Shown: positions 4,673 through 18,461 of the stretch, piece after piece
Layout of the letters: each line of letters begins with the position of its first letter
Position numbering within the stretch: position 1 is the stretch's first letter
Source of the DNA: Planctomycetota bacterium
GTDB lineage: Bacteria; Planctomycetota; SZUA-567; H5-PLA8
Direction: 5' to 3'
DNA length: 64,000 nt
Assembly: GCA_038227875.1 (NCBI GenBank)
Contig: JBBRPR010000017.1
Coordinates: 64,001-128,000, forward strand
Translations under genes and position numbers: made by a program
Notes under the pieces: generated by a model
Told to the model about the DNA's origin: nothing
Database searches by the model: none
Seen by the model: only the letters and a program-made list of their open reading frames with translations

Positions 4673-4881
4673 GTTTCGTTCTCGCCGCGCGGGGTATGTG
4701 TGACTGGCACTGACGCGTTTGTACAGCATTCGCGACGGCGGGGCAATACGGCAGGGATGGAGCTCAAAAGAATTGTTTGCGTCAATACGTTCAAAATTTA
4801 CCACTGCTCAAGATAGCAACATAGACTCCCGAATGACAGGTGTACCAACTGACGGGAAGTGGTCCCCGTGGAGATGTCGCG

Positions 4882-7800
4882 ATGGCTGAAAATTACGAAG
4901 AGCTCCAGAGACACCTGAACCGCGTCCGCCGCGCATGGCGTCGCGCCAAAGCGCTGCAGGGACTCTCGGCGGTGGTGATCGAAGGCGTGGGCATGTTCCT
5001 GGTCTTCGCGCTGATCGATCACGCCTACGCGATGCCGCAGACCGCGCGCATCCTGGTCCTGGCGGGCATCGGCGCGGTGCTCGCCGTGCTGTTTGCGCTC
5101 CATGTCGGCCGGCCGCTGACGAAGAAAATCTCCGACGACCAGATCGCCCTCTACATCGAAGAACACCAGCACGCCGACGGCGCGCTGCTCACCGCGACCA
5201 CGTTCGGCCGTGAGAAATCCAGCGGCAACGCCGTCTCCCGTTTCATCGTCGAACGCGTGATGAATTCGGCAGTGAGCACCGCGGGAAGTCTGAAGCTCGC
5301 CGAACTGCTCGATCTCTCCAAGCTCCGCAAGTACGGCATTGCCGTGCTGCTCCTGATCGGCGTGCTGGGGATCAGCGCGGTCCGGTTTTCGAATCTATTC
5401 GGACGGAGCGTCAACCGGCTGCTGCTGCCGTGGGAAGTCAGTGAAGAAGACCGCAGATCGCAGAACAGCATGACAGGCGAACCGGCGATTCAGTTCGAGC
5501 TCTCCACCGACACCGGCGATCGCGTGCTGCGGGGCACGGCGGTCACGGTAAAAGCGAAGTTGAGCCTTCGGCCGGCCAACGGCGCGCCGGTGGAATTAAA
5601 ATACCGCGCGGGCGGCGACCAGTTCCGCAGCATCAAGCTCGAGGAAATCGACGAACTCAATACCTTCGCCGTTCGACTGCCGGACATCAACGACGACCTC
5701 CATTTCTTCGCGCAAGTGGGCGCTGACAAGTCCGACGAGCGCACCGTCAATGTGTACGACCGCGTGGAGTTGAAAGGCCTGCAGATCACGCAGACGCCGC
5801 CGGCGTACACGCATCTGGAAGCGACGACGCAGGATACCGACAGCGGAGACATCACCGCGCTGACCGGCACACGCGTAGCAATCCGCGCGATGGCCAACGG
5901 CCCGCTCTTCAGCGGCACACTGAAGTTTGACGACGGCCGGACCATCGATCTGAAAGCCGACGAAAAGTCGGGTGCCGTCTCCGGTGAATTCGTGCTCGAG
6001 AAAGATGCGACCTACACGGTCAGCGCGACGACGCTCGACGGCCAGCACGTCGGGCCGACCTCAAGCTTCGTGCTGAAAACGATCAACGATGAGCCGCCGT
6101 CGGTGGCCGTCGACGCGCCGGGCTCCGATCTGGAAGTCCACGCCTTCGCCGAAGTCGACTTCCTCGTCAAAGCAAACGACGACGTGGGGCTCGACAGCGT
6201 TGCGCTGGTTTACACACTGTCCAGTGACGAATCCCATTCCGTGACGGTGCCCTTCAAGCTGGACGGCAAACAAGGTCCCGGCGAGCACATTGGCACGCTG
6301 ACGCTCGCGCTGGGTGATCTGGGCAAGAGTGTTCAGGCCGGCGATTCGCTGATGTACTACGTCTCGGCGAAGGACTTGAAGGGGCAGGAGACGCTCACGG
6401 ATCTGTTCTCGATCCAGGTTCGTCCGTTCGAGGTACTCGTCGCGCTGCCAAAGAAGGGCGGGCACGCGCCGGATCACGAATCATTTGCGTCGCTGCTCCA
6501 GTTCATCGCGACGGCGTGGAATATCCACACGCAGAAGCCGCACACACCGGAGGCCGAATACAACCAGCGCTGCGACGCGCTGGCCGGGCAGATCATGAAA
6601 GTCGACAGCGCTCACATCTTCGGACCCGGTGGTGGCGCGGAGACGCCGGAATCGAAAAAGCAGGTCGGCGATGCATTCAAGTCGGTGCTCGCCGGCGTCG
6701 ACGCGCTGAAACATCACGATGCGCTGAAGGCCGTCACGCTGCTGCGGCAGGGCATGATGATGTACAAGCGTGCCACGGTCAGCAGCAGCGCCATCGCGGG
6801 CGCGCTGGGTGGGAAGCAGTATTCGAGCTTCGCGGGCGGCGACCCGATGCGCCAGTCGCTGGGCAGCGTCGAGATCGCTCCTCCGCCGATCCACGAGGAC
6901 GATCCGCCGTTCTTCAGCAATCCCGTCAAGCCCGACTACCTGCGCCAGATCAACATCCAGGACGAGAAGAACGCCAAGGAACTGGCCGTGAAATTGAAGA
7001 AGCAACAACAGGACATCAACAAAGAAGCCCGCAAGCTCGCCGACCAGAATCAAAAAGGCGGCGGCGGAGGAGACGAGGAGCAGGAGCAACAGCAGCAGAA
7101 CAACGCCAACCCGGAGAAGGCCGCTGCGTTGCAGAAGGAGCAGGAAAAGCTGGCGAAAGATGTCGCGAAGATGGCGCAGCAGCTGGGTGAGAAAAATCCC
7201 AACGGCGACAAGGAGATGAAAGCCGCCACCGACGAACTGCGCAAGACGGCTGACGAGATGCAGAACGCCGCCGCCGATATGAAGGCCGGAAACATGCAGC
7301 GCGCCGCAGCGCACGGCGATCAGGCCGTCAAGGATCTGAACCTCGCCGAACAGCGCCTGAACGCCGGCCAGTTCGATCAGCTCGAACAAGCCGTGGCCGC
7401 CGCGGAGGACCGTGCGATGCAGGTCGCCGACAACCAGAAGAAGATCCGCGAAGCGACGCAGCGTGTTCTCGACGAGGCGAAGAAACGCAATCCCAACAAC
7501 ACTCCACATGCCGGCGAACCCGGCGATGCGAATCCCGCCAAACCCGAGGGTGCGAATCCGGGCAAGCCGGAACTGAACGCGCAGGACCTGCAGAAATTGA
7601 AAGGCATCGCGCGCTGGCAGGCTGAAAATCAGAAGAACGAGGAGAACCTGGAAGAGTACGTCGGCGAACTGGGCCAGTGGGCGGAAAAAGCCAATAAGAA
7701 GGAAACCGCCGACGCCCTGCGCAAGGCCGGCCGCGCGATGAAGCTCGAAAAAGTCGGCGATAACATGCTCAACATCGCCGTCGACCTGGGCATGAACGAC

Positions 7801-8685
7801 CTCGAGGGCGTGGCGGAAGCCCAGGCGAAGCTCGACAAGGCATTGAACAAAGTTGAGGCGCATCTGCAGGACGCCAACGGCGGGCTGGCGCAGACCAGCG
7901 AACAGAAAATGCAGCGCGCGCTGGGAGACGCCAAGCGGCTGCTCGACAAGGCGCAGGAACTGGCCGACGCGAACACCGAGCACAAAGGTGGCGAGGCTCC
8001 GGGCCATGAGAACAAGGACGGCGAGAAGCCGGGCAACGACAAGGCCGGAAACGTGAAGCACGGCGACGACAAAGCCGGCGGCGAGCAGAACAAGAAGCCG
8101 GGCGAGGGCGGCGCTCAAGCCAAAGCCGATGAGAAAAAGGGCGAAGTCAAAGGCGGCGACGCCAACAACAAACCCGGCGAAGCCAACGCTCAAGCCAAGG
8201 CAGACGCGCACGGCGATCCCGGCAAACCGGGCAAGGGCGAGCAAAACGGCGAGCCGAACAAAGACGCCGACAAGCAGGCCGCCAACGCGCCCGGGCAAGG
8301 GAAGGGCAAGGCCGCTCCCGGCGAGAACGCACCGAAGAAACCGGCGCTCACGGCCGAAGAAAAACGCGAAGCGGCGGCAGAGCTCTTCCGCGGCACGGTG
8401 CGTTTGGCCAAGCGCCTGGAGCAGGACAAGCTCGCGCTGAACGCTCAGCCGCAGCTCGGCGATGCGGCGCGCGACGAGAAGAGTTTCGCGGAGATGTTCA
8501 AGGAGGGGCGCAAGACGAAGCTCGACGCCTACCTCGCCACGGTGAAGAGCGTTTCGACGACGCTGGAAGGCAAGCTGGAGATGACGCTGAAAGCGCGGCG
8601 CCTCACGGCCGGCCAGCGCGAAGAGACGCCGACGCAATACCGCGAGATGGTCAACTCGTACTATCAGCGGTTGGCGAACCAATAG
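4882..8685 (+). CDS. Large membrane-anchored protein, DUF4175-like (3 N-terminal TM helices, Ig-like domains, Q/K/E coiled coil)
   Basis: N-terminal hydrophobic helices, ITQTPPAYT and DEPPSV..ANDDVGL motifs, long coiled coil, C-terminal P.QYREMVNSYYQRL; GGAG RBS before ATG 4882. Confidence 0.65.
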   Translation: MAENYEELQRHLNRVRRAWRRAKALQGLSAVVIEGVGMFLVFALIDHAYAMPQTARILVLAGIGAVLAVLFALHVGRPLTKKISDDQIALYIEEHQHADGALLTATTFGREKSSGNAVSRFIVERVMNSAVSTAGSLKLAELLDLSKLRKYGIAVLLLIGVLGISAVRFSNLFGRSVNRLLLPWEVSEEDRRSQNSMTGEPAIQFELSTDTGDRVLRGTAVTVKAKLSLRPANGAPVELKYRAGGDQFRSIKLEEIDELNTFAVRLPDINDDLHFFAQVGADKSDERTVNVYDRVELKGLQITQTPPAYTHLEATTQDTDSGDITALTGTRVAIRAMANGPLFSGTLKFDDGRTIDLKADEKSGAVSGEFVLEKDATYTVSATTLDGQHVGPTSSFVLKTINDEPPSVAVDAPGSDLEVHAFAEVDFLVKANDDVGLDSVALVYTLSSDESHSVTVPFKLDGKQGPGEHIGTLTLALGDLGKSVQAGDSLMYYVSAKDLKGQETLTDLFSIQVRPFEVLVALPKKGGHAPDHESFASLLQFIATAWNIHTQKPHTPEAEYNQRCDALAGQIMKVDSAHIFGPGGGAETPESKKQVGDAFKSVLAGVDALKHHDALKAVTLLRQGMMMYKRATVSSSAIAGALGGKQYSSFAGGDPMRQSLGSVEIAPPPIHEDDPPFFSNPVKPDYLRQINIQDEKNAKELAVKLKKQQQDINKEARKLADQNQKGGGGGDEEQEQQQQNNANPEKAAALQKEQEKLAKDVAKMAQQLGEKNPNGDKEMKAATDELRKTADEMQNAAADMKAGNMQRAAAHGDQAVKDLNLAEQRLNAGQFDQLEQAVAAAEDRAMQVADNQKKIREATQRVLDEAKKRNPNNTPHAGEPGDANPAKPEGANPGKPELNAQDLQKLKGIARWQAENQKNEENLEEYVGELGQWAEKANKKETADALRKAGRAMKLEKVGDNMLNIAVDLGMNDLEGVAEAQAKLDKALNKVEAHLQDANGGLAQTSEQKMQRALGDAKRLLDKAQELADANTEHKGGEAPGHENKDGEKPGNDKAGNVKHGDDKAGGEQNKKPGEGGAQAKADEKKGEVKGGDANNKPGEANAQAKADAHGDPGKPGKGEQNGEPNKDADKQAANAPGQGKGKAAPGENAPKKPALTAEEKREAAAELFRGTVRLAKRLEQDKLALNAQPQLGDAARDEKSFAEMFKEGRKTKLDAYLATVKSVSTTLEGKLEMTLKARRLTAGQREETPTQYREMVNSYYQRLANQ

Positions 8686-9753: not shown

Positions 9754-10596
9754 TTACAGCACCTTCTGAATCTGTTCGACGCGCGTCGACGTGCGGCAGA
9801 TCGCCTGCTCGACGTCTTTTCGCTTCAGCGGCCAGCGTTCGACCACCTTGTTGGAGATGCGGTAGCGCAGCCCATCGCCGGCGCCAAATTGCCCGCCGAG
9901 CAGCGACAGATGCGTGGAAAGATGGACGAGGTCGAGCGTCGTCGACGGGTGCGGCGCGGATTCCGGCGCATGGTGCCAGCGCACAATTTCGACGAGTTCC
10001 GAAGGCAGCTTCCAGCGTTCCAGCAGCGCGGCGCCGACTTCGGCGTGATCGGTGCCGAGCACTTCCATTTCAGCGACATCGAACGAGACGTTGTTGCGCT
10101 GCGCGAAACTTAAGATCGGCGTGGCGTCGACGTTGACGTACGTACCCAGCACGATTTTGCCGATGTCGGCGAGCAATCCGGCGGTGTAGGCCTGCGGCGG
10201 CTGCGGAATGCGCAGCACTTTCGCCAGTTCTTCAATGCCGAAAGCGGAGGTCAGCGACGCGGCCAGCAGCCGGCCGGGGGGCATGTCGTAGCCTTTGATT
10301 TCACCCCGCACGGCCGAGGGCAGACTGGCGGTGAGGATCAGTTGTCCCAGCAGCGCGGCGCCGAGGCGCATCGCGGCTTCATTGAGCGACGAGAGTTTGC
10401 GCGCGGCGCTGAATGCGGCGGAATTGGCGAGGCGCAGAATGTTGGCGGTGAGTCCCGGGTCGGTCTTCAGGGAATCGGCGATGGCGTTGAGATTCGCGTT
10501 TTCGTCGCGCAGTTTGTGGATCGCATTTACCGCAGACGCGGGAAGGGACTGCACTTTGTAAATCTGATTGAGGATCTCTTCACGCTGGTTAGCCAT
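9754..10596 (-). CDS. HDOD domain protein
   Basis: DPGLTANILRLANSAAF, AYTAGLLADIGK, DHAEVGAALLERWKLP..IVRWHH. Confidence 0.88.
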   Translation of the reverse strand: MANQREEILNQIYKVQSLPASAVNAIHKLRDENANLNAIADSLKTDPGLTANILRLANSAAFSAARKLSSLNEAAMRLGAALLGQLILTASLPSAVRGEIKGYDMPPGRLLAASLTSAFGIEELAKVLRIPQPPQAYTAGLLADIGKIVLGTYVNVDATPILSFAQRNNVSFDVAEMEVLGTDHAEVGAALLERWKLPSELVEIVRWHHAPESAPHPSTTLDLVHLSTHLSLLGGQFGAGDGLRYRISNKVVERWPLKRKDVEQAICRTSTRVEQIQKVL

Positions 10597-10690
10597 ATCC
10601 GCCCCCACTAAAAGGTAAGGAATTGCAAAATTTGCCGAAACCGTCCGCTGAAACGGAAGCTCCGCTGGGTACTACGCAACGGTGAGACCA

Positions 10691-10726
10691 AACAGACCTT
10701 TGTGCCTTTGGGCACAAAGGTCTGTT
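10691..10726. promoter_or_regulatory. Perfect 16-bp inverted repeat in a divergent intergenic region
   Basis: aacagacctttgtgcc-tttg-ggcacaaaggtctgtt; function inferred only from position. Confidence 0.5.
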
Positions 10727-10825
10727 AACACGCTGCACATGCGTTGAAAAAGCGTGGTGATCGGCTCTTCCCATGGATACCGGCGCACAGTATCGTAACG
10801 GGTCCAATCCTGTGGGGGGATTCAG

Positions 10826-13381
10826 ATGACCGTTCTCGTGACGTGCGCTGGTTGCGGCAAGAAGTACAAGGGTTCGCCGGGATCTAAAAAATTCAAATGT
10901 GGGTGCGGCAATCGCTTCACCTATCCCGACATGGCCAAAGCGCCGGCGCTGGGCCACGTGCTCTGTTCCAATTGCTGGACGGAAGTTCCCAGTACTGAAG
11001 ATTTGAAAGCCTGCCCAGCCTGCTCGCAGAAAATGTCCTCCCGCTTCAGCGGCCGCGCGATTTTGGAAGGCGCGGAGAGCGCCTCCACGGAACCCGACGC
11101 GCCGAAGGCTCCCGAACCTGCCGCCACGCCGCCGTCGACCGGGCCGGGTGTGCTGCCCGACGAGCCCCCCGAGAAACCGAAGACGAGCGAATCGCAGCGC
11201 GTCGAAGTCTTCCGCATGGATGCCGATCCGACGCCTCCTTCCGCGCACACGGATTCCGGCGACACGCTGGCTTCCGAAGGCCGCCAGGAACTGGAAGCGA
11301 CCATCGCCGACATGGCGCAGATGTTGAAGGTGACGCGCGACGCCAAGGACGCGGCGGTGAAGGAACGCGATGCGCAGCGCGATGCGCGGCGTGAACTGGA
11401 AGCGAAGATCGCGGAACTGCAGGCGCGGCTGGCGTCCGATGAGGCTGCCGAGAAGACCGCATCGAGTGCGCGCACCAAGCTCGCCGACGAGCGCCGTGAA
11501 CTGGAAGTGAAAGTCGCCGACCTGGAAGCGCGACTGGCCACCGATATCAAGGCCCGCGAAGCGGCGCTGCTGGAACGCGATGAAGTGGCGGAGATCCGCC
11601 GGCAGCTCGACGCCAAGGTCGCCGATCTGACCGCGCGCATCGAAGCCGACCGCCGCGCCGCGTCCGCCACGCCGGCGGCCCGCGACGAACTGCTCGAAGC
11701 CCGCCGCGATCTGGAAGCGAAAGTCGCCGAGCTGTCCACGCTGCTGAGTTCCGACAAGAAAGCGAAGGAGCAGCTGGTCAAGGAACGGACCGAACTGCTC
11801 GACCTGCGGCGTGAATTGGAAGCGCGGGTCGCGGAACTGTCGACGCGGCTCTCGTCGGGACTCACGGAACGGGAGACGGTTCAGAAGGAACGCGACAGCC
11901 TGTTCGATGCCCGGCGCGAGCTGGAAGCGCGCATGGCCGATCTGGAAGCGCGGTTGAAGAACGAACGGGAATCGAAGGACACGCTGGTCGGTGAGAAGAC
12001 GGAACTGACGGAAGCGCGCAAGGAACTGGAAGCGAAGCTCGCCGAAATGGCGACGCGCCTGGCCTCCGACCGCGGCGCGAAGGAAGCGGCGAACAAGAAG
12101 CGCAACGAGCTGACGCAACTCCGCCAGGAACTCGAAGCAAAAGTCGCGGACCTCGACGCGCGCCTGGCGTCCGACCGCAAGGCCAAAGAATCTCTGGTGC
12201 GCGAGCGCGACGGCCTGACCGACGCGCGCCGGGAACTGGAAGCGAAAGTCGCCGACCTGGAGACGCGCTTGAAGTCGGAGCGCGAATCGAAGGAGACGGC
12301 CTTCAAGCGGCGCGAAGAGTTGGTGGAGATCAAGAACGAACTGGAAGCGAAGACCGCCGATCTCGAATCGCGGCTGGCTTCGGAGACGGAAGCAAAGAAC
12401 ACCGCGCTGCATGACAAGGAGAAGCTCGCCGAGACCCGCAAGGAGCTCGACGCGAAGATCGCCGATTTGACGCGGCGGCTGGCCTCCGAGCGTGAATCCC
12501 GTGAAGCGGTCGTCACCGAGCGCGATGGACTGGCCGATGCGCGGCGCGAACTGGAAGCGAAAGTCGCGGACCTGCGCACGCGGCTGAAATCCGAGACCGA
12601 TGCGCGCGAAGCCGTGCGCCGCGAGCGCGATGAAGCCGTCGAGCGAGCGGATGCTTCGGACAGCAAGGCCGATCGTTTCGAAGCGGAGATGGGACGATTC
12701 CGCAAGGCGACGACCGACGCGCTGGAAACCCTGGCCGCCGATTACGACGCGGCGATCGAGCAGCTCACGGGCAGCGTGGTGGAATTGACCAGCCAGGTGC
12801 GCACCGCCAAGAAGCGGTTGGAAGAAGAGCACGCTCACGCCGGAAAGATCGAAACCGCGGCCGGCGACGTGCGCGCGAAGCTGGAGAAGCAGGGCAAGGA
12901 ACTCTCCGAGCGGATGACGCAACTGGTGGAAGCCGCCGCGGAAAAACCCGCAGAAGCGCCGCCGGAACCGAAGAAGGCTCCCGCAGCCGCCAAACCTGAA
13001 GCGCATGCGACCGCCAACGGCGCCGAAGTCGAGACGGCCGACGCAGCAGATGTAACTGAAAAGACTGAAGAAACGGAAGAGGTCGAGGAGGCAGAGGCTC
13101 CGAAGGAGCCCGTTGAGGCCGCTGCCGTGGAAAAAGTGGAGATGGACGCGTCCCACGCAGCCGCTTCCAGCCATGCCGAAACGGAAGATGCGGACGACGA
13201 CGATTCAGGCGAGGAAAAAACCGAAGCGCAGAAAGCCGATCGCGAGGCCGTGCGGCGCCTGCCGTTACGTGAGCAGCAGAAGCTTCGTTCGGACAAGGCC
13301 CCGGCGCATCCGCCGGGTGCGCAGACTCCCGGCGGCAAGGGCGTCTGGTCCCGGTTCTTTGGCGGACCGAAGAAGAAGTAA
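10826..13381 (+). CDS. Zinc-ribbon plus long repetitive coiled-coil protein with C-terminal amphipathic tail
   Basis: CAGC..CGC and CSNC..CPAC at the N-terminus; 13 x 35-aa repeats; acidic region; ends GGKGVWSRFFGGPKKK. Confidence 0.85.
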   Translation: MTVLVTCAGCGKKYKGSPGSKKFKCGCGNRFTYPDMAKAPALGHVLCSNCWTEVPSTEDLKACPACSQKMSSRFSGRAILEGAESASTEPDAPKAPEPAATPPSTGPGVLPDEPPEKPKTSESQRVEVFRMDADPTPPSAHTDSGDTLASEGRQELEATIADMAQMLKVTRDAKDAAVKERDAQRDARRELEAKIAELQARLASDEAAEKTASSARTKLADERRELEVKVADLEARLATDIKAREAALLERDEVAEIRRQLDAKVADLTARIEADRRAASATPAARDELLEARRDLEAKVAELSTLLSSDKKAKEQLVKERTELLDLRRELEARVAELSTRLSSGLTERETVQKERDSLFDARRELEARMADLEARLKNERESKDTLVGEKTELTEARKELEAKLAEMATRLASDRGAKEAANKKRNELTQLRQELEAKVADLDARLASDRKAKESLVRERDGLTDARRELEAKVADLETRLKSERESKETAFKRREELVEIKNELEAKTADLESRLASETEAKNTALHDKEKLAETRKELDAKIADLTRRLASERESREAVVTERDGLADARRELEAKVADLRTRLKSETDAREAVRRERDEAVERADASDSKADRFEAEMGRFRKATTDALETLAADYDAAIEQLTGSVVELTSQVRTAKKRLEEEHAHAGKIETAAGDVRAKLEKQGKELSERMTQLVEAAAEKPAEAPPEPKKAPAAAKPEAHATANGAEVETADAADVTEKTEETEEVEEAEAPKEPVEAAAVEKVEMDASHAAASSHAETEDADDDDSGEEKTEAQKADREAVRRLPLREQQKLRSDKAPAHPPGAQTPGGKGVWSRFFGGPKKK
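11279..12643 (+). repeat. Coding tandem repeat, 13 x 105 bp (35 aa)
   Basis: Consensus ARRELEAKVADLEARLASDRxAKExLVxERDxLxD, no indels between copies. Confidence 0.9.
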
Positions 13382-14583: not shown

Positions 14584-14762
14584 CCCCGCCAGCGCTCCGC
14601 TTATCTAACTAAAGTGAGAACCATCGGCGCGATGAAAAGCCCCTATTTGTCGCGGGGTATATTCATCGTGACACGATTTTATAAAATTCATGTAAACAGT
14701 TGCAGGACAAGACTCCCAGATTAAAACGGAGCGCCACAACTGAACCCAAGGAATCCGATCCG

Positions 14763-17700
14763 ATGAACCGCATTTTTGTGATTCTGATTACCGCATTTGC
14801 AGTGTCCACCGTCCAAGCGGCAAATCTGGACACGGTGGCCGATCGGGTACTGGGGCAGGCGAATTTCACGACGACTGCCGTCGGTGCTTCCGCCACGCAG
14901 ATCAGCACGGCATACGGATTGGGCGTCGACCGGCGCACGGGCCGCATCTATGTGGCAGACACGACCAACAACCGCGTTTTGAGCTGGCTGAACGCGGCGA
15001 CATTCACCAACGGCCAGGCGGCCGACAAGGTCTTCGGGCAGCCGAATTTTACCGCGGTTGCGAGCAACAATGGCGGCGTCAGCGCGTCGTCGCTGAGCGG
15101 CCCGCGCGGCGTGGCGGTGGACGACAATAGCAATCTCTATGTCGCCGACACGAACAACAATCGCATTCTCGTTTACCGCAATCCCAATACACAGGACAAC
15201 GTCGCCGATTTTGTGATCGGGCAGACCTTGTTCACCACGGTCACGTCCGGAACTTCGAGCACGAAACTTTTCGGACCGCGCGGAATCGCCATCGATTCCT
15301 CGAACAACCTTTACGTGGCGGATACCCAGAACAACCGCGTGCTGGAGTTCGACACGCCGCTGGGCACCGATGCGGTCGCCAACCGCGTGTTTGGCCAGCT
15401 GAACAGCTTTACGTCGAACTTCACGAATAACATCGGCGGCGCCAATGGCACGCCGACCAGCACCAATCTGAACAGTCCGTTCGGCGTGGGCGTTGATTCG
15501 CAGTCCAATGTCTACATTGCCGATACCTCCAACAACCGCGTGCTGGTCTACACCACGCCGTTGACGACCGATGTCACGGCGGACTTTGTTCTCGGCCAGA
15601 CGGTTTTCACGGCGGCGGGGACAGGCATCACCTCGACGACCTTGAATGGACCCTACCGCCTGGTCGTCGACAGCGCGGACAACCTGTACGTTTGCGACGT
15701 GAACAACAACCGCGTGCTGGAATACAATACGCCGATCTTCACGAACGGCCAGGCCGCCAACAAGGTCTTCGGCCAAACTAACTTCACCAACAATCTGGCT
15801 AACCAGGGTGGCACGCCCACGGCGAGCACCGTCAGCTCGCCGTACGACGTGGCCGTCGATAGCGCTAACAACGTCTACATCATGGATACGGGCAACTTCC
15901 GCATCCTGGGTTACGACCTTCCCGTGGCCAATACGTTTCCGACACAGAATTCGCTCTTTCCTTCGGTGATTGCGGCGGGGAGTGCTTCGTTTCTGCTGCG
16001 CGTGGACGGGGCGGGATTTGTGCAGAGCTCTTTCGTGCTGGTCAACGGTTCGGCGCGTCCCACTTCCTTTATCAACCCCACCCGGATCGAGGCCGCCTTA
16101 ACCGCAGCGGACATTGCCACGGGCAGCACGGCCACCATTACGGTGTCGACGCCAGTGCCGGGCGGCGGCACGTCGCAGTTGCAGAACCTGCAGATCTACA
16201 CGCGCGCGAATCTCGATACGACCGCCGACCGCATCGTGGGCCAGCCAGACTTCAATACCAAAACCGCCAACACCGGAGGCATCACCGCGCGCAGTCTGAA
16301 CGGCATCGTGGACATGGCCGTCGATCCGAAGAGCGGGCGATTCTGGGCCGCCGACTCCTTGAATAACCGCGTGCTGAGTTGGCCGAGTGCCGCGGCCATT
16401 ACAAACGGCCAGCCGGCCGATATCGTGCTCGGTCAACCGGATTTCAGTTCGAAGATTCCCAATTTCGGCGGCGCGGGAAGCACGCCGACGGCCAGCAATC
16501 TCAATGCGCCCAGCGGGATTGTGGTGGACAGCGTGGGTAATCTTTATGTGTCGGATACGGGCAATCACCGCGTGCTGCTGTACTCCACCCCGATTGTCTC
16601 CGGGCAGGCCGCGTCGAAGGTTTTCGGTCAGACTAATTTTACGTCCGGATCGGCGAACGCGGGCGGCACCGTCGCGGCCAACTCGCTGTTTTCGCCCTTT
16701 GGCGTGGCGCTGGATTCCGTCGGGAATCTGTACGTTTCAGATTACCAGAACAATCGCGTGGTGGTTTACTTCGCTCCATTGACCGGCGACACGACCGCTG
16801 ATTTCGTCTTCGGGCAGGGCGGTTCGTTTATCACGAACACGGCGAACAAGGGAACTCTGGCTACCAACGGCGCGTCGTGTTTGAACGGTCCGGTCTCCGT
16901 GGCGCTGGACAGCCAGGACAATGTCTACATCAGCGACTTCGGAAACAGCCGCGTGCTGGAATACAACACGCCGTTGACCACCGACTCCGTGGCCGACCGG
17001 GTCATCGGACAGAACAACGATTTCACCAGCGCCGTTTCCAATCTGGGCGGAGTGAGTGCCTCGTCGCTGGGCGGTCCGTATGGCGTGGCGGTGACCTTCG
17101 CTGGTGACCTGTACGTGGCCGATTACAACAACAACCGCGTACTGGAATACGATACGCCACTGACCACCGACCTGGTCGCCGACCGTGTCTTTGGCCAGGG
17201 CGGTTCCTTCTCAAACGCGTTTATAAACAACGGTGGAGTGAGCAAGAACAGCCTTAACCATCCGCGCGCCGCGTCCCTGGATTCCAGCGGCAACCTGTAC
17301 CTCAGCGACAACTTTAACAACCGCATCTTGATGTACGACAAACCGACGAACAAGACGCCCGTGGTGGTCTCGGCAGCGATGGCCACGCCGGCGGCGCAGT
17401 TTGTGGGACTGCCGGTGATGTTCACGACGTTCAACACCGATCCCGACGGCGATCCGCTGACGTATACGTGGAGCTTCGGCGATGGCGGGTCGGGGACCGG
17501 AGCGGCGCTGTCTCACATTTACGCGGCGCCCGGCACGTTCATGGCCACGGTAACGGTCAGCGATGGATTTGGCGGTCAGACGACCGGGAATGTGCAAGTG
17601 GTCATCACCGCGCCGGATTTCCCGGCCTTCACCAGTCTGGCCGTTGCATCGGGACCCGTCGGGGTCGCGTTCAACTTTCAAATTTCTGCCACGGGCACGA

Positions 17701-18461
17701 CGCCGATCACCTATGGAATTTCCGCGCTGCCACCGGGTCTGACGAGCAGCGGGACCACGATCAGCGGTACGCCGACGGTGGCGGGAAGTTATCCGATCAA
17801 CGTCACGGCGACGAACGTGGCCGGCACGGCTTCGCAGACGCTGACGATCGTGATCACCGGCGACGGGGTCAGCAATTCCAGTGTCGACAGCGATGGCGAC
17901 GGATTTTCGGATGAAGTGGAGACGGCGCTGGGACTCGACCCGAAGAATCCCAGCGATACACCATTTGGAGGCGCGCCCGCGGGCACGCCGGAATCGCTGT
18001 TCGTCACCAACCTGATCATCGGCGTCAACTTCGCCAAGGCCGGTAGCGACAGTCTTCAACTGGCCGGTGTACTGAACGTCCCGGCGGGATTTACACTTTC
18101 CGGAGCCAAGGTTGTCGTGGATGTCGGCGGAGTAGTGCGCAACTTCACGCTGGATTCTAAGGGCTCTACGCCGAAGGGAAATGACACATTAAAGCTGAGC
18201 GTAAAGTCCGTCAAAGGCGTCGTCGCGGGCCAGGCGTCGAAGTTCACGATTCGCTTCACGAAGGGCAGTTGGCAGGGGCTGTTGACCGATGAAGGCCTGA
18301 CCAACGACAACGCCACGGGCGTACCGAAGACCGTTCCCGTTGTGATCCTGTTCAACAAGAAAGTCTTCAAAGCCGACGTCGCGCAGCTGTACACGGCCAA
18401 GAAAGGCGCATCGGGAAAGACGAAGCTGCCAGCGACCGGCGCAGCGATTCCGGGGCGCTAG
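14763..18461 (+). CDS. Secreted modular protein: two NHL beta-propellers, IPT/TIG-like, PKD, Ig-like (He_PIG), DxDxDG Ca-binding motif, conserved C-terminal domain
   Basis: Signal peptide ending VQA; repeated L.GP.GVAVD..NLYVADT.NNRVL and AD.VFGQ..F; PKD YTWSFGDG..HIYAAPG; LPPGLT....ISGTPT; DSDGDGFSDEVE. Confidence 0.88.
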   Translation: MNRIFVILITAFAVSTVQAANLDTVADRVLGQANFTTTAVGASATQISTAYGLGVDRRTGRIYVADTTNNRVLSWLNAATFTNGQAADKVFGQPNFTAVASNNGGVSASSLSGPRGVAVDDNSNLYVADTNNNRILVYRNPNTQDNVADFVIGQTLFTTVTSGTSSTKLFGPRGIAIDSSNNLYVADTQNNRVLEFDTPLGTDAVANRVFGQLNSFTSNFTNNIGGANGTPTSTNLNSPFGVGVDSQSNVYIADTSNNRVLVYTTPLTTDVTADFVLGQTVFTAAGTGITSTTLNGPYRLVVDSADNLYVCDVNNNRVLEYNTPIFTNGQAANKVFGQTNFTNNLANQGGTPTASTVSSPYDVAVDSANNVYIMDTGNFRILGYDLPVANTFPTQNSLFPSVIAAGSASFLLRVDGAGFVQSSFVLVNGSARPTSFINPTRIEAALTAADIATGSTATITVSTPVPGGGTSQLQNLQIYTRANLDTTADRIVGQPDFNTKTANTGGITARSLNGIVDMAVDPKSGRFWAADSLNNRVLSWPSAAAITNGQPADIVLGQPDFSSKIPNFGGAGSTPTASNLNAPSGIVVDSVGNLYVSDTGNHRVLLYSTPIVSGQAASKVFGQTNFTSGSANAGGTVAANSLFSPFGVALDSVGNLYVSDYQNNRVVVYFAPLTGDTTADFVFGQGGSFITNTANKGTLATNGASCLNGPVSVALDSQDNVYISDFGNSRVLEYNTPLTTDSVADRVIGQNNDFTSAVSNLGGVSASSLGGPYGVAVTFAGDLYVADYNNNRVLEYDTPLTTDLVADRVFGQGGSFSNAFINNGGVSKNSLNHPRAASLDSSGNLYLSDNFNNRILMYDKPTNKTPVVVSAAMATPAAQFVGLPVMFTTFNTDPDGDPLTYTWSFGDGGSGTGAALSHIYAAPGTFMATVTVSDGFGGQTTGNVQVVITAPDFPAFTSLAVASGPVGVAFNFQISATGTTPITYGISALPPGLTSSGTTISGTPTVAGSYPINVTATNVAGTASQTLTIVITGDGVSNSSVDSDGDGFSDEVETALGLDPKNPSDTPFGGAPAGTPESLFVTNLIIGVNFAKAGSDSLQLAGVLNVPAGFTLSGAKVVVDVGGVVRNFTLDSKGSTPKGNDTLKLSVKSVKGVVAGQASKFTIRFTKGSWQGLLTDEGLTNDNATGVPKTVPVVILFNKKVFKADVAQLYTAKKGASGKTKLPATGAAIPGR

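Follow-up and report, generated by a model that had tools for sequence, protein, structure and literature searches.

The gene and its layout

The 64,000-nucleotide stretch analyzed here (the window) spans positions 64,001 to 128,000 of contig JBBRPR010000017.1 from the genome assembly of a Planctomycetota bacterium (GCA_038227875.1; lineage SZUA-567, H5-PLA8), and it carries, at positions 10826 to 13381, a gene for an 851-residue protein built around a long repetitive rod. A preliminary description had proposed a cytoskeletal or scaffold protein with zinc ribbons, a coiled-coil rod, and a MinD-like membrane tail. After computational follow-up, we favor a cytoplasmic, membrane-tethered coiled-coil scaffold, in which an oligomer would be held at the membrane by clustered weak amphipathic tails and the zinc heads would provide a docking site; we put the probability of this reading at about 0.5.

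The start codon of the open reading frame agreed with the N termini of homologues, and related genomes contained stop-free matches to the coding sequence. From the N terminus onward, the protein comprises a zinc head, a Pro-rich linker, the rod, a C-terminal helical domain (CTD), a disordered leash, and a short tail (Table 1). Neither a transmembrane helix nor a signal peptide was found in the protein by a 19-residue Kyte-Doolittle scan, in which the highest mean was 0.57. Because of this and of the Cys4 zinc knuckles, a cytoplasmic location, as had been proposed, is supported by the predicted features; the same three features ruled out a secreted or surface fibril resembling M protein. The other parts named in the preliminary description (two Cys-pair zinc ribbons, a Pro-rich linker, 13 gap-free 35-residue repeats, more coiled coil, an acidic tail, and a MinD-like terminus) were all recovered. 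What had gone unnoticed is that the head is family specific and common to short paralogues, that the helical domain behind the repeats is conserved, and that the tail occurs on other types of protein.

Table 1. Coordinates and character of the rod protein's parts and of three related genes (aa, amino acids; pLDDT, predicted local distance difference test score)
Feature	Residues	Coordinates	Strand	Character and evidence
Whole coding sequence	851 aa plus stop	10826..13381	+	ATG start; open reading frame list; 8 homologues (744-838 aa) alignable end to end
Zinc head	1-81	10826..11068	+	Compact, all-beta, 4 Cys knuckles; AlphaFold2, alignment, phmmer
Pro-rich acidic linker	81-152	11066..11281	+	14 Pro in 72 residues; predicted disordered
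Rod	153-607	11282..12646	+	13 gap-free 35-aa (five-heptad) repeats; consensus RRELEAKVADLEARLASDREAKEAAVKERDELADA
CTD	~608-705	12647..12940	+	Amphipathic, 3.6 period; BLASTP, hidden Markov model, AlphaFold2
Disordered leash	706-835	12941..13330	+	Acidic 716-800, basic 801-835; pLDDT < 50
Tail GGKGVWSRFFGGPKKK	836-851	13331..13378	+	Putative amphipathic membrane-targeting helix, then polybasic end
Short own-genome paralogue		L015:613-1755	-	Head and CTD
Short own-genome paralogue		L016:964-2244	+	Head and CTD
Ser/Thr kinase with tail	301 aa	L040:1447-2352 = G000:C13:71946-72851	-	Tail directly after kinase domain

Tail, rod, and head

The C terminus of the window protein is GKGVWSRFFGGPKKK. The RefSeq record of Escherichia coli K-12 MinD ends in EEEKKGFLKRLFGG, that is, in KKGFLKRLFGG, which bears out the form that had been quoted for the MinD helix. 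Position for position, the two ends read K-G-[V/F]-[W/L]-x-R-[F/L]-F-G-G; the window tail, K-G-V-W-S-R-F-F-G-G, stands at the same distance from the Gly-Gly as in MinD and then continues into a PKKK extension. The motif held in common, 8 to 10 residues at the extreme C terminus, can thus be written K-G-hydrophobic-hydrophobic-x-R-hydrophobic-F-G-G, and the helical-wheel pattern is also the same, with V840, W841, F844, and F845 on one face. W841, F845, P848, and K851 were invariant in a nine-sequence alignment. At the level of the motif only, the protein has a C-terminal amphipathic end of the MinD/ParA type. The deviant Walker A P-loop ATPase domain of MinD/ParA (TIGR01968) is absent from it, and no ParA/MinD/CbiA-type family was listed for it by Pfam (E <= 1) or NCBIfam (E <= 0.01). 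The original papers on the MinD membrane-targeting sequence are reportedly those of Szeto in 2002 and 2003 and of Hu and Lutkenhaus in 2003.

For counting among relatives, the tail pattern was defined as hydrophobic-hydrophobic-x-x-hydrophobic-F/W with flanking K/R in the last 16 residues. It was present in 20 of the 22 rod-bearing relatives of at least 700 aa and absent from all 50 shorter proteins with the head, counts that overstate the independent support, the genomes and proteins being kin and some of the proteins near-duplicates, and that do not amount to a statistical test. One of the two exceptions is a near match, GGFFARFKRGNKK; the other is a frameshifted gene with KKKGFLGLFGR* in the next frame. 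The latter orthologue (L013, G014:C2:666768-671474) lies in a nearly closed genome and leaves its frame near the 3' end, through a true frameshift or through an error of assembly. Tail variants included SGTFWAKVFKRP in genus g10, SSFLGRLFGGKKK in protein P0030, KKKGGFLGGIFGR and KKSGLFGIFGRK in relatives with a single zinc ribbon, and KTFLGRFFGKK, KKKGWLGGIWGKK, and GGFFNRFFGGKKK in 1039- to 1367-aa forms and others. The tail is therefore retained in the single-ribbon relatives, where the head differs. Similar tails (NLFSRIFKK and SVFGRWFKKKE) end the giant coil proteins of relatives at L035 and L036. Within the window's own genome, the strict motif occurred in 4 of 28,669 frames of at least 120 aa and a relaxed motif in 13 of 20,175 frames, among which only the window protein and a 301-aa Ser/Thr kinase (Pkinase, 147 bits) were convincing; the kinase ends in GGLLNRLFKKRK / KGPGGLLNRLFKKRK. 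Because it is also found on the kinase, on giant coil proteins, and on relatives with another head, the tail appears to behave as a portable, selected module that is tied to long rods, and a MinD-like tail, as had been proposed, is supported and is conserved wherever a long rod is present. We consider it likely, though well short of certain, that the tail binds membranes.

The repeats of the rod are regular at the protein level. Identity at a lag of 35 residues was 0.474, compared to 0.113 +/- 0.015 in 1000 shuffles (maximum, 0.160), and the best lag outside the multiples of 35 reached an identity of 0.202; the mean pairwise identity of the repeats was 0.46. At the DNA level, Tandem Repeats Finder reported a 105-bp unit in only 2.5 copies with a 70% match. 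Because repetition was barely detected in the DNA, the array is, as its sequence indicates, old and not a recent expansion. The power of hydrophobicity at a period of 3.5 was 157.8, compared to 10.7 +/- 10.3 in 500 shuffles (maximum, 54.9), and the hydrophobic positions of each repeat are 4, 8, 11, 15, and 32. Since 35 equals 5 x 7, the heptad phase is unbroken across the 455-aa array. We infer a continuous coiled coil over the rod, and we regard an oligomeric coiled coil as highly probable. With a coiled-coil rise of about 0.148 nm per residue, 455 residues would extend over about 67 nm, which falls within the 65 to 70 nm estimated earlier.

AlphaFold2, run on the full-length protein with an alignment of 11 sequences, predicted helices at residues 146 to 278, 283 to 413, 432 to 668, and 680 to 703 and disorder in the linker and in all residues after 706. 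Together with the repeat analysis, these helices between a disordered linker and a disordered tail region reproduced the head-rod-tail layout that had been cited for comparison. The first helix break (279 to 282) coincides with P283. Within the linker, which is poorly conserved and length variable among homologues, pLDDT was below 50 over residues 68 to 146. A prediction of two copies of residues 433 to 720 as a complex scored 0.00; it was run without controls and counts neither way. An alpha-solenoid of the PPR/TPR kind was ruled out by the uninterrupted predicted helices of 130 to 237 residues and by the hydrophobic period of 3.5.

A comparison of repeat number among homologues had been suggested and was made here with a hidden Markov model of the 13 repeats, which detected 7 to 13 repeats in long relatives at spacings of mostly 35 or 70. 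The 35-aa phase was retained in orthologues. The rod spanned 447 to 455 aa in three genera and 312 to 342 aa in genus g10, where a longer low-complexity linker offsets the shorter rod and the total comes to ~800 to 840 aa; indels occurred in the middle of the rod among orthologues. Repeats 5 to 13 lay mostly on the diagonal when set against the nine repeats of P0001 (genus g10; one of three proteins compared). With P0002 and P0006 the diagonal was weaker, and with the single-ribbon relatives it was not clear. On this evidence, the core repeat array may predate the genera compared.

The roughly 100 further helical residues behind the repeats, noted earlier as more coiled coil, differ from the rod in their periodicity, the power of hydrophobicity being 79.7 at a period of 3.6 versus 27.4 at 3.5. 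In the CTD, AlphaFold2 placed a helix to residue 668, a break, and a second helix from 680 to 703. BLASTP found residues 600 to 713 to be collinear with the C-terminal parts of short paralogues that carry the same head. A hidden Markov model built from the BLASTP matches located the CTD near the C terminus in 45 of the 51 proteins of at least 240 aa that carry the head; 12 shorter fragments were left out of the tally, and the sequences that served as seeds necessarily match. Those lacking it, six in all, are two single-ribbon relatives, P0057, P0053, P0022, and P0051. Because the CTD accompanies the head in 45 of 51 cases, the combination of the two is, by sequence comparison, the signature of the family. 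P0051 and P0022 have the head and quite different C-terminal parts, the head of P0022 lying at residues ~100 to 180. Beyond the CTD, the acidity described for the tail region was confirmed (28 D+E versus 7 K+R in residues 716 to 800); the residues after the CTD number 95 to 166 in long relatives and 1 to 68 in short ones.

The head contains all eight Cys residues of the protein, none lying beyond residue 66 (positions 7, 10, 25, 27, 47, 50, 63, and 66). They form four knuckles, C7xxC10, C25xC27, C47xxC50, and C63xxC66, the second being C-x-C (C25-G-C27) rather than CxxC; the same holds in the 87%-identical fragment P0009, and more distant homologues have CxxC. Residues 1 to 80 have a net charge of +8. 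All eight Cys residues and W51 were invariant in 47 aligned sequences, which were the query and 46 others (43 of 53 phmmer matches plus P0003, P0005, and P0008); the alignment omitted P0022, in which the head is not N-terminal, the weak matches P0053 to P0057, and the truncated P0006. The phmmer search itself, with residues 1 to 95 against 1.84 billion cluster representatives, gave 53 matches at E <= 0.001, 47 of them at E <= 1e-10, in proteins of 98 to 836 aa. In 50 of the 53, the match began no later than residue 14, the exceptions being P0041 (residue 30), P0022 (residue 100), and the N-terminally truncated P0006. By these matches, the head is a narrow module that, P0022 aside, stands at the N terminus and is common to the short paralogues.

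From the 47-sequence alignment, AlphaFold2 predicted residues 1 to 81 as a compact fold of strands only (pLDDT, 87.5; predicted template modeling score [pTM], 0.74). The four knuckles imply two putative Zn(Cys)4 sites. Because the single-ribbon relatives, which belong to other genera, have knuckles 1 and 2 alone (CPGCGKK...CPGC), the knuckles would pair sequentially, 1 with 2 and 3 with 4, as two ribbons rather than as a cross-brace. No Foldseek match to the head model was obtained at E <= 0.001; the best VIA-align Z score was 3.2, to ribosomal zinc-ribbon proteins, and entries for ZitP and GltJ were absent from the lists. The model PF13717, which with PF13719 makes up the Pfam pair Zn_ribbon_4/5 and represents the MJ0042/ZitP/GltJ-type ribbon, scored 10.5 bits on the head and 20.0 bits on P0002, versus a cutoff of 30.3. 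Only the second half of the head resembled, in sequence, the last two knuckles of the RING fingers of RNF4 and BRE1 (best E, 8.4e-4). There is hence no close solved fold for the head, and the fold searches neither name its family nor exclude one. A RING E3 identity was rejected: PF14447 (Prok-RING_4) and PF13920 scored 21.0 and 19.9 bits versus a cutoff of 27, the C3HC4 cross-brace spacing of 2 to 3 residues between ligands 4 and 5 is replaced by 19 residues between C27 and C47, and H44 is not conserved among homologues, which also counts against RING.

A membrane-tethered scaffold and its alternatives

The scaffold that we favor would work as follows. Self-association through the rod and the CTD would give an elongated homo-oligomer, in the simplest case a dimer, and would thereby gather at least two copies of the amphipathic basic tail, one copy being probably too weak for retention at the membrane. 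Clustered tails would bind by avidity to the cytoplasmic membrane from its inner side, in the manner of dimeric MinD. The leash of ~130 residues, largely acidic, would leave the rod mobile relative to the bilayer and give it reach, and the head at the opposite end, basic and with two zinc ribbons, may be a specific docking module for a protein or nucleic acid partner. The short paralogues, having head and CTD and neither rod nor tail, could then be soluble counterparts that use the same contacts.

Precedents exist for the tail and the head. According to two reports, a single membrane-targeting sequence of E. coli MinD is too weak and the dimer binds membrane (PMC8155659), and designed coiled-coil dimers with weak targeting peptides were membrane bound only if dimerized (PMC7935970); by analogy, the window tail would need more than one copy for binding. 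Unlike MinD, the window protein has no ParA/MinD ATPase domain, so a permanent coiled coil would replace the ATP switch, and PKKK follows the motif. For the head, another report describes the zinc ribbons at the N termini of ZitP (Caulobacter) and GltJ (Myxococcus), both membrane-attached proteins, as binding partner proteins (PMC11135422). The arrangement in common is a CxxC...CxxC ribbon that stands at the N terminus, in the cytoplasmic part of a protein attached to the membrane, with a flexible linker behind it. The window protein differs in having two ribbons in one compact ~80-aa domain and in a putative membrane link made by an amphipathic tail, with the whole rod in between, rather than by a transmembrane segment.

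Several observations weigh against the scaffold reading. Large hydrophobic residues occupy 25 of 65 a-phase positions versus 43 of 65 d-phase positions, which gives a weak core, and each repeat has R/K at three a-positions (1, 22, and 29) and D/E at one d-position (18). Global confidence in the full-length AlphaFold2 model was low (pLDDT, 64.5; pTM, 0.24), and the second helix break, at 414 to 431, is an indel site among orthologues at which the rod is interrupted. The proposal of 455 residues of continuous coiled coil accordingly stood with respect to the in-phase heptad signal and was weakened by the poor a-positions and by the predicted breaks at 279 to 282 and 414 to 431. The hydrophobic moment of the 10-aa tail was modest (0.33 versus 0.45 for E. 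coli MinD), and kinship among the genomes inflates the tail counts given above. Membrane binding and oligomerization are themselves predictions from the sequence and a model. Genomic surroundings gave no help either: when window open reading frames of at least 150 aa (first 30 kb) were compared by tblastn with 11 related loci, no neighbor in common was found, the only other matches being three reading frames, one of them an AraC-type regulator, on one stretch of one locus, and neither those loci nor the paralogues showed a conserved neighborhood pointing to a partner or process.

The alternative that fared best, which we hold possible rather than likely, is that the protein polymerizes without nucleotide into a membrane-attached filament in the manner of crescentin and FilP, or acts as a ruler of ~65 to 70 nm, possibly in division without FtsZ. 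Crescentin and FilP have a head-rod-tail layout and self-assemble into filaments independently of nucleotide. With these two, Scy, and Helicobacter Ccrp, the window protein has in common a non-helical head, a long heptad rod, a tail, and no nucleotide-binding domain; a long heptad rod between a non-helical head and a tail, which is the operational definition of an intermediate filament-like protein, is indeed what was found. Longitudinal contacts from head to tail would be consistent with the joint occurrence of head and CTD (45 of 51 members), the rod span is nearly constant in three genera, and no match to FtsZ was found in the window's genome (88% complete), in line with the lack of FtsZ that had been stated for planctomycetes. 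The crescentin rod model PF19220 (Rod_CreS) was matched below threshold by the best-scoring relative, the L012 protein, and, in precomputed annotation, by four database homologues (P0001, P0003, P0005, and P0008). The L012 score, 34.9 bits, is nevertheless far below the gathering cutoff of 100, and the model was absent from the Pfam matches of the window protein at E <= 1, so that membership in the crescentin/FilP families is not supported. The window protein is set apart from crescentin, FilP, and Scy by its zinc head, its strict 35-aa repeat, its lipid-type tail, and the absence of a family-level sequence match, and its gene is unlinked to division or cell wall genes. As for a ruler, the mid-rod indels and the variation among orthologues in repeat number (7 to 13 detected) and rod span (312 to 455 aa) argue against a strict length ruler; because of this variation, the fixed-length ruler of the preliminary description is disfavored.

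A second alternative takes the break at ~414 to 431 at face value: the rod would fold back there as an antiparallel hairpin, like the arms of SMC proteins, and would form a membrane adaptor of ~35 to 40 nm in which the head lies at the same end as the CTD and tail, as a head-CTD composite. The predicted break leaves arms of similar size (146 to 413 and 432 to 703), and in the orthologues of genus g10 the equivalent site is the only one in the rod that is prone to indels and contains Pro. Co-inheritance of head and CTD in 45 of 51 members, short ones included, would suit such a composite, and the mixed a-d' layers of an antiparallel pairing could accommodate the polar residues at many a- and d-positions. 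In the window protein, by contrast, both the 35-aa and the heptad phases run through residues 414 to 431 with no gap and no Pro. Predictions of monomers tend to fold long helices back, gaps in the alignment may have caused the low confidence at the break, and the only break in the single-ribbon relatives lies far from the middle. We therefore consider the model-derived hairpin doubtful.

More doubtful still is a golgin-type tether. Golgins, some of which have amphipathic lipid-binding motifs, are an analogy only: they combine a rod of tens of nanometers, one end fixed to a membrane, and a capture module at the other end. A tether of ~70 to 80 nm could sit with its clustered MinD-like tails on the cytoplasmic membrane or its invaginations while its heads held a cargo (the nucleoid, an inclusion, or another membrane) at a set distance; or polymers joined through head and CTD could make a membrane skeleton for shape or division in a lineage without FtsZ and MinD, the short tail-less paralogues acting as soluble regulators or caps. 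The window protein is bacterial and cytoplasmic and has no sequence relationship to golgins, and this organism has no known vesicle or organelle cargo. MinD itself had no match above its family cutoff in the window's genome, the best match scoring 133.8 bits versus 212.9.

Finally, the hub-binding tails of FtsZ and SSB also pair a disordered acidic linker with an extreme C-terminal peptide, and the conserved ~10-aa terminus of the window protein could likewise be a docking peptide for a protein hub, with kinases and giant coil proteins having the same partner; this is improbable given the match, residue by residue, with the membrane-targeting sequence of MinD, the hydrophobic face and flanking polybasic residues typical of lipid binding, and a free drift of sequence (FWAKVF, FLGGIF, FFNRFF, and WLGGIW) under which pattern and charge are kept, as is more usual for lipid binding.

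The building blocks of the protein are all of known kinds; the combination, with its family-specific head and CTD, is new. What is new in the arrangement is a zinc-ribbon head, a putative docking module, joined through a strictly periodic heptad rod to a MinD-type tail that would bind lipid. Should the tail bind membranes, this lineage would be using the MinD-type peptide as a portable tag for rods and kinases alike, and a defined handle would be available on whatever is anchored there; the family would then be a candidate part of a membrane skeleton in planctomycetes. To our knowledge, planctomycetes do without FtsZ in division and in organizing a complex envelope, and only a small number of their structural proteins have been identified. 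Without membrane binding by the tail, the family would amount to one more lineage-specific coiled-coil protein.

The family, its relatives, and the surrounding genes

The family is new and lineage restricted, and most of its carriers are uncultured. No model of Pfam, NCBIfam, PADLOC, or PHROG matched the 851-aa protein at its own cutoff. The Pfam matches were to coils and to RING or zinc-ribbon models only, all below threshold, and those of NCBIfam (E <= 0.01) were to coil segments of SMC/Rad50 only, TIGR02168 scoring 39.7 bits versus a cutoff of 567. An SMC/Rad50 identity was rejected, the halves of an ABC ATPase head being absent from the two coil ends; one database source names a homologue "chromosome segregation ATPase," which this test does not support. 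Lamassu LmuB, Zorya ZorA, and phage families were likewise set aside as weak matches to the coil only (PADLOC and PHROGs). Foldseek returned no match for the full-length AlphaFold2 model at E <= 0.001, and the best feature score in the ESM Atlas, 0.78, was below a useful level. Full-text literature searches on planctomycete, coiled-coil, cytoskeleton, amphipathic-helix, zinc, and membrane-targeting topics found no description of the family.

Eight proteins of 744 to 838 aa, with 34 to 40% identity, were retrieved by a word-indexed search, the named sources being metagenome-assembled genomes of Planctomycetota, and a collection of species genomes yielded six loci, all titled "Planctomycetota bacterium." Among 41 genomes sampled around that of the window, 18 had a match to the gene. 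Within the same family, 15 of 16 genomes did (G000 not included); the other two families of the order had 0 of 1 and 1 of 2, and other families of the class had 0 of 15, 0 of 4, 1 of 1, and 0 of 1. The matches beyond the family were weak (E, 3.7e-4 and 6.9e-6). Open frames of 1519 to 1840 aa at L035 (G006:C1:241500-248500) and L036 (G007:C67:1-5500) encode the giant relatives, which match the 35-aa repeats; the parts fetched, whose N-terminal portions are incomplete, were without Pfam matches.

Typical members with head and CTD have 250 to 450 aa. The window's genome encodes two, of 381 and 427 aa, which share the head and CTD, have neither rod repeats nor tail, and sit among metabolic and unrelated genes. 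Nine of 38 short paralogues end in ...AA, often as HAA or PAA, which is reminiscent of ssrA-type degrons, and GPxxELLAAG(V/I)PP is conserved in the last 60 residues of 6 of the 38. Besides those at L015 and L016, the short paralogues with such C-terminal signatures are P0015, P0016, P0018, P0020, P0021, P0023, P0026, P0031, P0032, P0043, and P0050.

The gene for the rod protein looks monocistronic and stand-alone. Antisense frames of up to 861 aa (for example, 10589-13174 on the minus strand) overlap it; rich in R, L, F, and G and without homologue support, they were taken to be by-products of a GC-rich, repetitive coding sequence rich in E, A, L, and R. Its neighbors encode an AraC-type regulator, a divergent HDOD protein, a YdjY-domain protein, and an NHL-repeat protein. 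Upstream, at 4840-8685 (+), lies a gene for a 1281-aa protein with an N-terminal hydrophobic region, a weak match to DUF4175 (33.9 bits), and a C-terminal half that is long, rich in K, E, Q, and A, and punctuated by Gly and Pro; it has no match to the rod protein. The NHL-repeat protein (1253 aa; 14700-18461, +) has ScyF-like and choice-of-anchor Z repeat matches and is probably secreted and unrelated to the rod protein.

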